A stretch of DNA of 64,000 nt from Octopus vulgaris (taxonomy: Eukaryota), in assembly GCA_951406725.2 (NCBI GenBank), contig OX597821.1, forward strand, positions 10,540,001 through 10,604,000. The letters are read 5' to 3'. The notes under the pieces were generated by a model. The model did not search any database. It had not been told where the DNA came from and saw only the letters and a program-made list of their open reading frames with translations. The position numbers were made by a program, and so were the translations under genes. Numbering within the stretch: the stretch's first letter is position 1; each line of letters begins with the position of its first letter. Shown piece after piece: positions 21,945 to 60,135 of this stretch.

Positions 21945-22007
<63 letters not shown>

Positions 22008-22009
<2 letters not shown>

Positions 22010-23310
22010 GACTATATATACAACGTATAGAAGGTGGTAGAGGCCTTATACAACTGGAAAACTACTATAAAATAACCACCATAGAACTGCAAAAAGATCT
22101 ACTTCAGAAGGAAGGAAAACTGATACAAATAGCGGCAAAACACGAGCAAAACAAAAAACTGTTCTCAGTATTTAAGGAAGCTGAAAATACAAACAAGAAA
22201 TCATACCACCTAATAAATATGAAGAAGAAGAAGAAGAAGAAGAAGAAGAAGAAGAAGAAGAAGAAGAAGAAGAAGAAGAAGAAGAAGAAGAAGAAGAAGA
22301 AGAAGAAGAAGAAGAAGAAGAAGAAGAAGAAGAAGAAGAAGAAGAAGAAGAAGAAGAAGAAGAAGATTAAGAAACAACAAAAGCTATAAAACAAATGAAA
22401 TCCAAACTAAAAATAGAACAGCAACGAACCATGATAAAACGATGGCAAGAAAAACCCCTTCATGGTAAATACTGGACTAAACTAAACGCAAAATAAATAG
22501 ACAAAGAAAATCCCGGCAATGGTTGAGAAGCTCAGGACTCAAAGCAGAAACAGAGGGATTTTTAATTGCAGCACAAGACCAAAGCCTCCCCACCAGAAAT
22601 TACCAAAAACATGTAATGAAAAGAAATATAACAAGTAACTGCAGAATATGTGGAGATGGACAAGAAACAATAAATCATATTATCTCTGGCTGCCCAGTCC
22701 TGGCTAAGAAGGAATATATTCACAGACATGACAGAGTTGGAACCTACATACATTGGAAGCTATGCCAACATTATGGAATAACAACAGAAAAAAGATGGTA
22801 TAGGCACACACCAGAAAAGGTCACAGAAAACGAGAAAGCAACCATACTCTGGGATATGCCGATACACACAGATAGAGAAATTAAGGCCAACAGACCAGAT
22901 ATAGTTGTCAGAGATCATGAAGAAAAAAATGCTTTCTAATTGATGTATCAATACCGGCAGATGACAACGTGTCTCTAAAAGAAATGGAGAAACTCTCAAA
23001 ATACAAAGACCTGGAAATAGAGGTAACCAGAATGTGGAATCTGAAAACAGAAACAGTTCCTATCATAGTAGGTGCATTAGGCATGATAAAAAAATATTGA
23101 CAAATACATAATAAAAACACCAGGACTTACAAACACATATAACATAAAGAAAATTGCACTACTAGGCACTGCACACATCCTACGCAGAACACTTTCCATA
23201 CAATAACCATCAGAGTATCACAACAAATCACAGCACATACCCAAGGCACACAGAGCTGCGCTCGGTAGTGAAGTGAAAGCACGCTATAAAAATAAAAATA
23301 AAACTACTGA

Positions 23311-23760: not shown

Positions 23761-24073
23761 GAAGTTGTTATTGCAAATAACAGCCGTAATTTTATTCAGT
23801 TTAAAACACGTCACTGATTGGTTAAAATTACCGAAATACGACAATTTTAACAACAAATAACTTCCATTATACAGAATTTTCTCTCAACAAAGCTAAGAGT
23901 AAAAGATGTTTTATGTGACACCTTCTACCAGTATACGAAGTTTGAAAGAGTTTAGTTACAAAAAATAATTTTTTTTAAATCTGTCGGTCAAAAGGTAAAT
24001 ATTCTACTTTTCTCGCGATGTGATAAACATTTAAAAACAGAATACACCGTCACCACTTACTATCTCTCTCACT

Positions 24074-24586
24074 TGTAAATAAAGTTGTAAATATAGTCGA
24101 GCTAACGGTTCCTCATGAAGATAATATGGACGCCGCTCGGGTTCGAAAATTGAACCGTTATGAAAACCTCCTCGAGGAATGTGAAGACGCAGGCTGGAAA
24201 GCGGAACATTTTCCTATCGAAGTCGGATGTAGAGGGTTTGTTGGACACAGCGTGAGACGACTGTTGTTATCGTTAGGCCTAACTCATCGTAAAGTCAATA
24301 CCACCATGACTGATATCCAATCTACAGTGGAGAAGGCTAGCCACTGGATTTGGTTAAAAAGAGACGATGAGCGATGGCTAGAAGTATATTGAGTTTTTCA
24401 TAACCAGCTGATCTAGCAAGCGGGGCCTCATATCAGTGAGGGGGGGCCGATGCGCATTGATGCCGTCGAGAGGTAGGCCCCGAAACGGCGCGCATTCTCT
24501 CCTGATGACCCCATACACTTGCTACCTTCCGGTATACGGAGCTTTTAACTGGTAGCACTTGCATGTGCAAGTTGTTTGCAAGACAA
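24074..24586 (+). mobile_element. HERO-type RLE non-LTR retrotransposon 3' end
   Basis: IVELTVPHEDN..RKLNRYENLLEECEDAGWK..PIEVGCRGF..EKASHWIWLKR; flanked by duplicated sequence at 23977-24073 and 24587-24655. Confidence 0.85.
24414..24524 (+). ncRNA. Putative non-circularly permuted hammerhead ribozyme with intact core; predicted cleavage after GUC (C24467)
   Basis: Stem III GCCGU(24462-66)/ACGGC(24485-89); stem I GAGAG(24468-72)/CUCUC(24497-501); CUGAUGA 24502-08; stem II GGGGCC(24443-48)/GGCCCC(24476-81); GAAA 24482-85. Accessory helices AUGCGC/GCGCAU, CCUCA/UGAGG and UAGCAAG-GGGG/CCCC-CUUGCUA. Confidence 0.75.
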
Positions 24587-24729
24587 AAATCTGTCGGTCA
24601 AAAGGTAAATATTTAAAAACAGAATACACCGTCACCACTTACTGTCTCTCTCACTCTCTACTTTTCTTCTACTTCCTTTCTGAAACATTTAAAACACTAA
24701 ACGAACGCCATAACCTCTCTCTATCTCTC

Positions 24730-56847: not shown

Positions 56848-57556
56848 CTGTGGGGACAAAAAACAAAACGAATGAATGAAAAATGGATTATAATTAATGA
56901 GGATGTGATGGCTGCTTTAACCCCACTCTCAAGCAGTACCATCTAGCTCTTTTTATAACAGTTTTTATATATTTTCCCCCGTTTTCCCCTTTTTAGTATC
57001 GTATTTGGTGTGTCTTTAATAAAATTACAAACGTTTACTCACGTTTTACGAGTTCCCACATGGCTTCAAATCTATATAGTCTACAACAGGTGTTAGGTCT
57101 TCAAATTCTACCTCCACTCTCAATGGGTATAAGTTGGTTCCAAAGCATTCTTTTAACTTTCCATTTCTCTCTTGGTCTATTACTATGCCTTTTGTATTTT
57201 CTGTGTAAAGCTCCGCTGGTAATTTTACTCTGATTACAGATTTAAATTTGGTAATTTTCCTTTCTATTGTCGTGGTCTTTGAATATGTTACCATATGCCA
57301 TCTGTTTTTCCTGGGCTTTATGTCAGTTTCACTCTACCTTTTCATTTTGGGGCTTTTCGGGGATGAGTTCACTATTTCTTTTCTTTTCCTCTTGGTCACT
57401 TCTGTAAATGCCTCTTATGTTTCTTCCGTACATTTCTCGTGTGCTAGGCCTGTCATTTCGGTACTTTGCTCATGTTGGTTTTCCTCACATTTACTGTCTC
57501 TCCGGGGGCACTTTATTCTAATGCGTCCCTTTTCTCCCCATTGATAGCAGATTGGT

Positions 57557-58936
57557 GATGAAAGAGATGAAAGAGGCAGTGATATAAGAGATGAAAGAGA
57601 CAGTGGTATACGAACTGAGAAAGGAGGAAGAAAAAAAGGCTAAATGTACATTGCAGTCAACAGGGACAGTGCCTGAGATGGGAGAAATATGTGATCAACC
57701 GCAGAATATCATGGAAGGAACTTTGGGCTTAGGAACAAGCAAGAACATCCTTCCTGATTAAGTCTATCTTCGACGTTCTACCCTAACCGGCGAACTTAGT
57801 CCAGGGGAACATAAAAACAACCGACGAGTGTAGATGCGGAGAGAAAGCAAATGTTAGAAATCTTCTGTCAGGTTGCAGACTAGCATGTGAAAGGTATACA
57901 TGGCGGCATAATCAAGTCATCGGCGTGATAAGCACAGCACTCAAGGATAAGATCGAGAAGTACAATAGGGGAGAATACCCAAAAGTAGAAAAGCGCAGGA
58001 GAGTATACTTCCACAAGGAGGGAAAGGTTATAAAACCAGGCCTACAAGTAAAGTATACGAGATAGACGAAAGATGGAAGGGATACTGGGAGGTGGCCACG
58101 GACTTGGAAAGACAAGTAATATTTCCACTAATAAAAACAACAAAAAGACCGGATTTAGTTCTTTGGAACAGAGACCGGAGAATGGGAATTTTACTAGAAC
58201 TGACAGTAAATTGGGAAGAGAACATCAGCAATGCAGACGAACGAAAGGAGAAGAGGTATGGAAAGCTAATCGAAGAATGCAGAGAACAGGGATGGAATGT
58301 CGAATATTATCACCTGGCAGTGGGGGCTAGAGGCTTCATTGAAAAGAAAATGACAACGCTTTTCAAAAAAAGATTTGTTTTTCCTAGCTCCGAGCTGCGT
58401 AAACTAATAAGGAGAGTACAGGAGGCGGTCGAAAACGCCAGCTTCTCTATATGGCTGAAGCAGGAAGACCGAAAATGGCTTGAAAGTCAAACACACCGAC
58501 GGGAAATAACATCATTTGGTGAGACAAGCTGACTGACAGGTGACGGTCGTTTAGAAAAAGCGTGGGCTAAAACTACGCGCCTTCATTAGTCAGTTAAGGT
58601 GAGACAGTGTTACGTGACAACTTGCTGGGGCTGCCTGCTGGAGCCTATGGGCAGGTATTTAAAGGAAAAAATTTGACAAGACAGTCAGTCACCGGCTGAC
58701 ACTCGCTGACGATACATCGAGGAGGCCAGGGAACAGAAGAAAGAAGAAGAAAGAAGACATGCACCCAACACCAGAGCTGAAGACACATCCGAAAGCGGGG
58801 GAGCCCGCCACGTCAAAACAGTAGATGAGTAGGGGCCGAAACCGGACGTGGTTCTTCCTGATGATGTCTTGAGCTAACTGGATCCTATAAAGGAGCTGTT
58901 GTGGTAACAGACCACGAAACACGGTTGTAATTCTCC
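57557..58936 (+). mobile_element. HERO-type RLE non-LTR retrotransposon, 5'-truncated, 41-bp TSD
   Basis: SFLIKSIFDVLP, CRCGE..LSGC..RYTWRHNQV, RPDLVLW, LELTVNWEE, RYGKLIEECREQGW, VGARGF; TSD 57516-57556 / 58937-58977 (39/41 identical). Confidence 0.9.
58775..58875 (+). ncRNA. Putative non-circularly permuted hammerhead, partly decayed; predicted cleavage after GUA (A58823)
   Basis: P1 AGCU-G-AAGACA/UGUCUU-G-AGCU; stem II GCCC/GGGC; CCACGUC(58808-14)/GACGUGG(58845-51); stem III CaGU/ACCG; stem I GAuGAG/UUCUUC; GAAA 58838-41; CUGAUGA 58858-64. Confidence 0.65.
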
Positions 58937-60135
58937 TTCTAATGCGTCCCTTTTCTCCCCATTAATAGCAGGTTGGTTGTATTTCTTCCATCACCATTTT
59001 CAACCTTACGTCCTCCGGTAGAATCACCTCTTCAGCGATTTCGTTCAAATCTTGTTGTCCGACCCGATTGACAATTTCTAGGACATATCCCCTGCTAATT
59101 AACTTTTGTAACCTTGTTATCTTTAGAATTTTGGCGTCCTCCTCGGTTCTATTCATTACGGCTGCCTCGCGGGAGAATATCAACAAATATAACAAAGTAT
59201 AACAAGACTTACTTCAACCGGAATCAGAAATGATTTAACATAACAAGCACACGGCTTTACAGCTCACCGAATCTCTCTCCACACTCTCTAGGCTTGTCCA
59301 TTTATATGAAAGCACAGTACATTAGGAGTCAACCTCCTTCCAAACAACAGTTTACAATAATATGGTTAAAATAACATACTAGCAATAAGTAAGATATTTT
59401 ATAAAAATAATCTAATATTATTATTAATATCATTCTATTAATTAGGTTTACATAAGTAAAACTCGTATTTTTATAGATTAAGCTTTCTGCCAAACTACTG
59501 TAATATACTAAGAATTCATCATTGACATTTGGTTTTTCTGTGCTCGGAAGGACACTAGAACGAAAATGGTATATGTTTTAGAGTAAATATTTTAAATTTA
59601 ATAGTTATGATATTTTCGCAAAACATTCATAAAAGCGTAACACATTTTCGAATTTTCAGTATTACTTTCTTTGCAACAGCCAGTGACAATTTTCTAGAAA
59701 AGCATTCTGTGAATATGCTGAAGTTTTCTTTTCAGCCCACTCTTAATCATTAAAATGCAGTTTTGCCATATTCTACATGCTGTCTGTATTCATATCTTGT
59801 ATGTCATAAAATTATTGGAACATTACATCATGCGTCATGGACATAGTAATTTGAAACTACTTCAAATGATTAATATAGAAAAAAATACATAAAAGGAAAA
59901 TAATATGAACGTAAAATTCCCATAATCTTTTCAAGTGATATAAAATTAGAATTCAGTTACAAGTTTTGTAAGTATTCTAAGAATCTCTCTTGCGAGTATT
60001 TGTCAGTGTTGATTTGTTTTCTGTCAGAACAAGTACATCAATGCAACTTAAATATAAAATAGCGAAAATAGTTTGAAAGATATATTTTCTACTTGAAAGG
60101 AATAATCCTTGCTAAATCAAGTCAGATCTGTTTAC

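Follow-up and report, generated by a model that had tools for sequence, protein, structure and literature searches.

A predicted SGC-order hammerhead with an interrupted core block in R2-group retrotransposons of Octopus vulgaris and their relatives

Introduction

What kind of RNA lies at the end of a broken retrotransposon copy in the Octopus vulgaris genome, and what might it do for the element that carries it? The window, a stretch of 64,000 nucleotides (contig OX597821.1 of assembly GCA_951406725.2, positions 10,540,001 to 10,604,000 of the forward strand), holds at 58775-58875 a set of helices that a first-pass annotation, made from the letters alone, had read as a permuted hammerhead. 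That reading stands in outline, but the S-G-C order of the core blocks, the interruption of block C and the ring-like layout of the elements were absent from it.

Ribozymes in retrotransposons were reviewed in 2019 for R2, L1Tc, RTE, SINEs, Penelope elements and retrozymes (PMC6765202). Hammerheads of type SGC (HRIMA-1 and variants) come from metatranscriptomes only and cleave in vitro (Eckert et al. 2023, PMC10085705); according to the available text of that study none of the published RNAs occurs in the genome of a known organism, and stem II was assumed to follow CUGAnGA directly and obligatorily.

The element and its copies in the window

Both hammerhead-like RNAs of the window end 5′-truncated insertions of two high-copy families, A and B, in the 2.8-Gb genome, where the core pattern occurs at 2,985 places against 661 for a reversed control. 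The insertions and their flanks are the following.

24077..24586, forward strand: family A copy, 5′-truncated, the 3′ end of a 3738-nt unit
24414..24523, forward strand: predicted family A ribozyme of the same architecture, essentially intact (H17 is C24467; CUGAUGA at 24502)
57516..57556, no strand assigned: left copy of a 41-nt flanking direct repeat, 95% identical to 58937-58977
57568..58935, forward strand: family B non-LTR copy, 5′-truncated, no poly(A) (blastn to the natural unit L067, 91.7%)
57646..58532, forward strand: frameshifted remnant of the C-terminal open reading frame, with a CCHC knuckle and a restriction-like endonuclease (RPD..ELTV..K..Y)
58937..58977, no strand assigned: right copy of the 41-nt flanking direct repeat

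The family B copy is the 3′ ~1.37 kb of a ~3.88-kb unit whose boundaries were set from 30 copies, and its coding remnant matches the family A protein at 43% and 38% (tblastn); the two families share 44.5% identity in the C-terminal protein. A full family A unit contains a single open frame of 1175 amino acids that specifies, in order, an N-terminal C2H2-like finger, a reverse transcriptase (RT), a CCHC knuckle and a restriction-like endonuclease, the motif of the last being read from the sequence. The RT belongs to Pfam RVT_1 (E 7e-19) and its best PDB matches are R2 proteins. The element is thus an R2-group (RLE) non-LTR retrotransposon, and it lacks the telomerase-like RT with GIY-YIG endonuclease that typifies Penelope-like elements. 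Young intact copies of the element are more than 99% identical. Insertion is mostly non-specific, as the copies have unrelated flanks. The HERO clade likewise inserts mostly non-specifically and occurs in fish and lancelet (PMC4640811, PMC3636483); the element probably belongs to HERO, insertion habit and host range being suggestive of this, not diagnostic.

The 41-nt direct repeats around the family B copy are a probable target duplication, and the family A copy is flanked at about 23977-24072 and 24587-24655 by a ~70-nt direct repeat with an interruption. Long flanking repeats of this kind are unusual: both window copies have them and most other copies have none. Where both flanks of a copy were available, target duplications were found in 2 of 24 cases for family B and 3 of 17 for family A, and several are simple repeats; this is too few to test whether a tandem is a single insertion. 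Elsewhere in the window, about 22000-23290 reads as the 3′ part of another non-LTR element with an RLE-type C-terminus and an (AAT)n end, and 32-535, which matches the RT domain of the family A protein weakly (24% identity, E 4e-10), looks like a fragment of a further retroelement.

Architecture of the predicted hammerhead

In the family B copy the fold comprises the following parts.

58775..58785, forward strand: closing helix a, 5′ strand (partner 58865-58875, 11 bp)
58786..58800, forward strand: hairpin h, between helix a and stem II, damaged at 58787 in this copy
58801..58806, forward strand: stem II, 5′ strand, source of G10.1 (partner 58832-58837), damaged in this copy
58808..58814, forward strand: helix c, the stem I-II interaction, 5′ strand (partner 58845-58851; CCACGUC/GACGUGG)
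58819..58829, forward strand: block S, with the stem III 3′ strand, GUA triplet and stem I 5′ strand
58832..58844, forward strand: block G, with the stem II 3′ strand ending in C11.1, GAAA (58838-58841) and the stem III 5′ strand
58852..58875, forward strand: block C, interrupted, with the stem I 3′ strand, CUGAUGA (58858-58864) and the helix a 3′ strand
58876..58935, forward strand: tail up to the putative internal priming site, ending about 112 nt past the predicted cut

The GUA triplet, GAAA, CUGAUGA, helix c and the single-G linker (58807) before its 5′ strand all lie where the first-pass annotation had put them. The closing helix is present as well, but is 11 bp long, not 6, and the hairpin at 58786-58800, whose loop in family B is GAAA, had been overlooked. 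The GCCC/GGGC pairing proposed for stem II proves to be off register in a damaged copy; the helix of the family has 6 bp (GGCCCC/GGGGCC) and closes with G10.1-C11.1. The helices of families A and B had also been said to differ entirely, which overstates the case for stems I and II, where both families have similar G/C-rich strands. In full family B units the tail after the ribozyme continues into the 5′ leader.

Read 5′ to 3′, the core blocks are GUH (S), GAAAC (G) and CUGAUGA (C), the order that defines type SGC; the circular order C-G-S of the Rfam type I, II and III hammerheads is not present. Block C is not continuous. The strand after CUGAUGA pairs upstream as helix a, the hairpin follows, and the strand that supplies G10.1 comes after it; in the family B window copy a helix a strand accordingly stands where stem II would be expected. 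Among 32 non-redundant RNAs from related elements, the canonical first pair of stem II forms in 2. Helix a and the hairpin are instead placed between A9 and G10.1, with junction linkers of 0 nt on each side in 29 of the 32, although these linker and pairing counts come from a gap-penalising parser and are partly so by construction. Such an arrangement would insert a four-way junction between A9 and G10.1. A canonical SGC stem II was also tried and ruled out, with 36.5% of cells paired in a sequence-only alignment, the level of shuffled sequences.

The core of a hammerhead is otherwise complete, with CUGANGA, GAAA, NUH and the pairs A15.1-U16.1 and G10.1-C11.1. The search pattern of the parser demands this core; when two core mismatches were allowed and H17 was left free, 34 of 39 parses still had the standard core, and their triplets were GUC in 22, GUA in 10 and GUU in 6, with one mis-parse and no GUG. 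Within the 32 RNAs G10.1-C11.1 is kept in 31, the pair 15.2-16.2 is C-G in 30 and U-A in 2, N7 varies freely, and the tertiary C3-G8 pair is swapped once for U3-A8, a variant known from active hammerheads (PMC3088659). Helix c was found both by the parser and by folding, at the site that Eckert et al. describe. Folding of single sequences, which cannot score pseudoknots, recovered only the nested helices a, h, c and III (L117, L135; z -4.2).

A search of 58600-59000 against Rfam gave no hammerhead match at E values up to 10, and a wider search gave none among the best 150 of 226 matches, with microsatellite noise. Natural hammerheads are known that have one extra nucleotide at the start of the 5′ side of stem II (PMC4209133), and other insertions in the core lower cleavage activity (Perreault et al. 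2011, PMC3088659); the available text of the latter study describes no helix between A9 and G10.1. The hairpin region contains a palindromic UGAUCA or UGGCCA in 11 of the 32 RNAs (L117, L132, L135, L181, L133, L127 and others), which could be a kissing-loop dimer signal.

Several observations bear on whether the window folds arose by chance. A descriptor scan of both strands of the window ranks them first, at 24502 (score 83) and 58858 (63), ahead of the next hit at 58; in both copies the upstream partner strands outscore 60 of 60 shuffles; and 80 related loci scanned in antisense (279,446 nt) gave no match at a threshold of 62, with a maximum of 55. These results together indicate that the folds are not chance pairings. 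The mismatches of the family B copy had been ascribed to decay, and this agrees with the five positions in its ribozyme (58787, 58802, 58820, 58826 and 58855) at which it departs from 29 other copies of family B. The stem III anticipated for the family, CGGU/ACCG, is what those copies have, pair III.3 being G-C in 23, G-U in 5 and A-C in 1. For stem I the forecast of GAAGAG/UUCUUC was wrong: the copies show GAGGAG/UUCCUC, and pair I.3 is G-C in 27 of 29, both partners having changed to give U-U in the window. By hammerhead numbering the cut is predicted after A58823 (H17), and comparison with the family B copies agrees with that earlier placement. An intact core with stems I and III is present at 17 of the 30 best-scoring family B loci. 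A supposed subfamily of family A with compensations was discarded, having only 7 matches.

Distribution and covariation among relatives

Among metagenome contigs a scan confirmed 526 relatives, and the analysis covered the top 80 (29-66% identity); no relatives were found in IMG/VR. The fold was parsed in 42 of the 80, yielding the 32 non-redundant RNAs, and the parsed loci comprise 34 of the 52 whose 3′ flank is 250 nt or longer, plus 8 others. In a first pass 37 of 39 parses beat 60 of 60 shuffles of the upstream 100 nt (L148 and L154 failed). For stems I and III, in 26 sequences from parsed RNAs aligned by MAFFT on sequence only, 91.5% of pairs form and 11 of 12 show compensatory change, a result reached in 0 of 500 shuffles, while slid controls give 40-50%. 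Helices a, h, II, III and I, in a MAFFT alignment of 9 close relatives, are 94.7% paired with compensatory changes at 13 of 23 pairs. Three covarying stems, I, II and III, thus surround the core, and the pattern of conservation appears to be that of a working hammerhead.

It had been proposed from the two window copies that the fold is a selected, clade-wide part of HERO elements. Two copies are thin evidence of covariation, yet the proposal is supported by the relatives, with compensatory changes in every helix counted. The exceptions to a clade-wide distribution are a sub-lineage with a twister-like or unclassified RNA and 6 long-flank loci at which nothing was seen. Those 6 belong to the 18 of 52 long-flank loci that did not parse; another 4 have a Twister-P5-like match, 2 have a different conserved fold, 4 resemble decayed hammerheads (L159 by the relaxed search, three by eye) and 2 are sisters of loci with a ribozyme about 760 nt out. 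Proteins of Takifugu, Oryzias, a cyprinid and Branchiostoma nest among the ribozyme-bearing loci in a FastTree protein tree; as that tree is midpoint-rooted, it is not used to order the gains and losses of ribozymes.

Head-to-tail layout of the units

Full units carry upstream, in head-to-tail order, a truncated repeat of the 3′ end of the same unit, ribozyme included, and the same junction recurs at independent loci. In loci that look competent a full unit follows a partial copy and each has its ribozyme, a partial-tandem (pseudo-LTR) layout with the ribozyme in the repeat that works like that of Penelope-like elements. From cut to cut the family A unit measures 3738 nt. No examined locus contains two full units, and the longest upstream repeat is 1979 nt. 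Seven metagenome contigs carry the end of the open reading frame, the 3′ region, the leader and the start of the open reading frame in a row, and 5 of them have terminal repeats, which may reflect the assembly of collapsed repeats.

The ends of family A copies were surveyed in the first 30 of 484 pattern matches in genome order. All 30 extend in the 5′ direction across the predicted cut and none begins there; 28 end at +114 to +131 past the cut, clustering at about 118, and 2 run into a full unit. Poly(A) is absent from the 3′ ends, and 60 aligned copies show no gap at the cut. Each of the 25 family A copies that hold the start of the leader extends upstream into 3′-end sequence, 18 of them beyond the cut to scattered points from -19 to past -1365, and the other 7 start between +26 and +113; two loci among the 25 are duplicates. 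In family B, 26 of the 30 best-scoring leader loci extend upstream into 3′-end sequence and 4 begin inside the leader; 7 of the loci lie on one contig with a common boundary and are taken as one. The element has no natural 5′ end, and its 3′ end is internal and slightly variable. Private alleles of the repeats were compared at 16 tandem loci: at 6 the two repeats have more private alleles in common with each other than with any other locus, at 2 they have more in common with another locus, and 8 are uninformative. Gene conversion could be a source of such sharing within a locus.

How the units might be copied

To judge from the conservation of its core and stems, the intact RNA very probably cleaves itself. 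The four-way junction would let G10.1-C11.1 stack on the core as usual and so permit cleavage; no assayed precedent was found for a cleavage-competent RNA with a two-helix branch inside its core, which counts against this. For the element as a whole we consider it fairly probable that paired ribozymes excise a unit of ~3.7-3.9 kb, which is circularised and reverse-transcribed for more than one round from an internal site. A read-through transcript would be cut twice at the GUH triplets, freeing one unit, and the resulting 5′-OH and 2′,3′-cyclic phosphate ends would be joined by the ribozyme or by a host ligase. The copies show that cDNA begins about 112-122 nt 3′ of the cut, crosses it without a scar and stops at scattered places, sometimes past one full unit; only copies longer than one unit would regain two ribozymes and become new masters. 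Contigs from four public runs contain no joint at the cut, but contigs do not reveal RNA ends, strand or level. This sequence of double cutting, ligation and rolling reverse transcription, in its entirety, seems the better-founded account by a modest degree. A circular-RNA model of this kind was proposed by Cervera and de la Pena for Penelope elements (PMC4209133).

The junction sequence alone cannot separate a ligated template from one that was never cut, and seamless passage across the cut with scattered 5′ ends is expected equally if an active ribozyme accompanies reverse transcription of uncut linear read-through RNA, transcribed from tandem loci and primed internally. Cleavage would then serve another stage, such as freeing an uncapped message from host transcripts, translation or the control of dose. 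There is precedent in the Penelope element PAc, whose hammerhead is dispensable for priming in vitro and whose main template is uncut RNA, with no reads ending at the cut according to the available text (PMC11167929), and a ribozyme at the 5′ end of a retrotransposon helps in release and translation (PMC6765202). A linear master, however, can hand down an upstream repeat no longer than its own, so the layout would decay unless new tandems arose in some way, and a locus with two full units was not seen; the grouping of repeats by locus rather than by position at 6 of 16 loci also argues against a standing master with two repeats. A circular template is favoured because it renews the upstream repeat and explains the locus-specific identity of the repeats, and we regard copying from uncut RNA as unlikely, though the strongest contender. 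The same grouping at 6 of 16 loci makes it less likely that an unrelated copy inserted into the junction of the element itself.

A linear monomer whose ends are clamped together as a nicked circle is a further candidate, in which the RT would jump the nick. The topology suits it, helices a, II, c and III holding both ends, and Bibillo and Eickbush are said to have found in 2002 that an R2-type RT synthesises across non-continuous templates. Copies that stop at the cut are nonetheless missing from all three surveys (0 of 30, 0 of 25 and 0 of 30), and no bases are added or lost there in 60 copies, which makes a jump improbable. It is very improbable that the hammerhead is catalytically retired and kept as a binding platform for the RT protein: LINE proteins usually bind near the priming site, the fold lies ~110 nt from it and the branch in the core could hinder catalysis, but among elements whose proteins are only 30-55% identical the catalytic and tertiary positions stay the same, with free variation at N7 alone, a U3-A8 compensation occurs and a twister-like motif replaces the hammerhead in one sub-lineage.

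Comparison with known systems

The fold shares with published type-SGC RNAs the S-G-C order, all core nucleotides, a short linker between stems I and II, and a helix that joins the far sides of these stems, to which stem III is sometimes joined directly (PMC10085705). It differs in that block C is interrupted, the ring having its opening between A9 and G10.1, where helix a and the hairpin close it, and in being part of a chromosomal retrotransposon.

Penelope elements and retrozymes share the partial head-to-tail tandems, the ribozyme in the repeat, an internal start of reverse transcription and a proposed circle (PMC4209133, PMC11167929). Penelope elements use a telomerase-like RT with GIY-YIG, whereas an R2-group RT with a C-terminal restriction-like endonuclease is found here, and the minimal dimeric type I hammerheads of Penelope elements and retrozymes contrast with a complete, monomeric ribozyme of SGC order. 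With the R2 group and HERO the element has in common a single open reading frame of zinc finger, RT, CCHC and PD-(D/E)xK, together with dispersed non-specific insertions and 5′ truncation; its nearest named relatives are from fish and lancelet (PMC4640811, PMC3636483). The ribozymes known from the R2 group are HDV-like and define a genuine 5′ end, with priming at the RNA 3′ end; the element described here has instead a hammerhead, no fixed 5′ end and no poly(A) tail.

What is new is a topological variant of the hammerhead together with a probable Penelope-like life cycle in an R2-group LINE, of which the window copy is a broken representative. A literature search outside subscription journals found 'type-SGC' only in Eckert et al., and it did not find HERO joined with a hammerhead, with any other ribozyme or with a ring layout; Repbase entries and Reports, which lay outside the search and could hold a note on tandems, are excepted. 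The available text of PMC5678591, PMC6155905, PMC13725137, PMC13580325, PMC13708176, PMC10162972, PMC8370743 and bioRxiv 2026.07.22.740005 contained no match. The broadest proposal, which we put forward tentatively and at a little short of an even chance, is that a whole clade of autonomous R2-group LINEs, abundant in aquatic animals, fish included, propagates by way of a protein-coding RNA circle that is covalently closed and has neither a 5′ nor a 3′ end in the genome. A new hammerhead topology with a four-way junction in its core would produce the circle, and in sister lineages its slot would be taken by a twister-like RNA and by a candidate ribozyme of an unclassified kind.

Were this so, hammerheads that are not circularly permuted would for the first time have a place in genomes and a biological role. 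The CUGAnGA block would prove open to interruption, contrary to what has been assumed in print, so that present searches would miss thousands of copies per genome. An R2-group LINE would be using the ring strategy of Penelope elements and retrozymes, and the long-proposed, unproven route of retrotransposition through circular RNA would become testable in an autonomous, young and intact element. Internal priming and circular templates are also relevant to R2-type gene-insertion tools, and, with the position of the ribozyme fixed, new self-cleaving classes could be sought at that place.

Other RNAs of sister lineages and features of the leader

A sub-lineage without the hammerhead has another conserved, pseudoknotted RNA in the same place (L166:4252-4325, L169, L173:4133-4215, L185, L186:234-307). 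It consists of an outer helix, a long stem and a GCA-x-GCUCAAC loop whose 5-nt x has a downstream partner; in the 5 sequences 17 pairs form throughout (100%), 5 of them with double changes. It has no Rfam match and, on five sequences only, is a candidate self-cleaving class. Twister-P5-like matches lie on the sense strand of the 3′ region at L174:4014-4070, L172:2414-2470, L179:2199-2254 and L182:2772-2821, in the same place and on the same strand as the hammerhead, with scores of 20-28 bits that fall below the cut-off of 37.6. The four loci are close relatives and count as one event. This twister-like lineage is nested within that of the pseudoknotted RNA, an apparent swap of ribozyme class.

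Short hairpins in an array of up to 9 repeats make up the 5′ leader; their loop is GGAAAGAC while the stems vary, and the arrays lie at the following places.

L061:4440-4560: leader hairpin array
L117:2500-2600: leader hairpin array
L181:1140-1260: leader hairpin array
L166:285-480: leader hairpin array

In 4 of 5 leaders DRACH words reach 7.5-8.7 per 100 nt, compared with about 2 for the open reading frame and above 500 of 500 shuffles, and the family B leader shows no such enrichment. Since m6A can aid cap-independent translation, the array might, speculatively, serve in translation of that kind or as a protein-binding array. A tRNA-like stretch with A-box and B-box, seen by eye, follows the stop codon directly upstream of the ribozyme in one lineage (L119, L121, L130, L152, L158 and L181); ARAGORN called 0 tRNA genes in 12 loci. 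A promoter at this stretch would sit like the U3 of an LTR.
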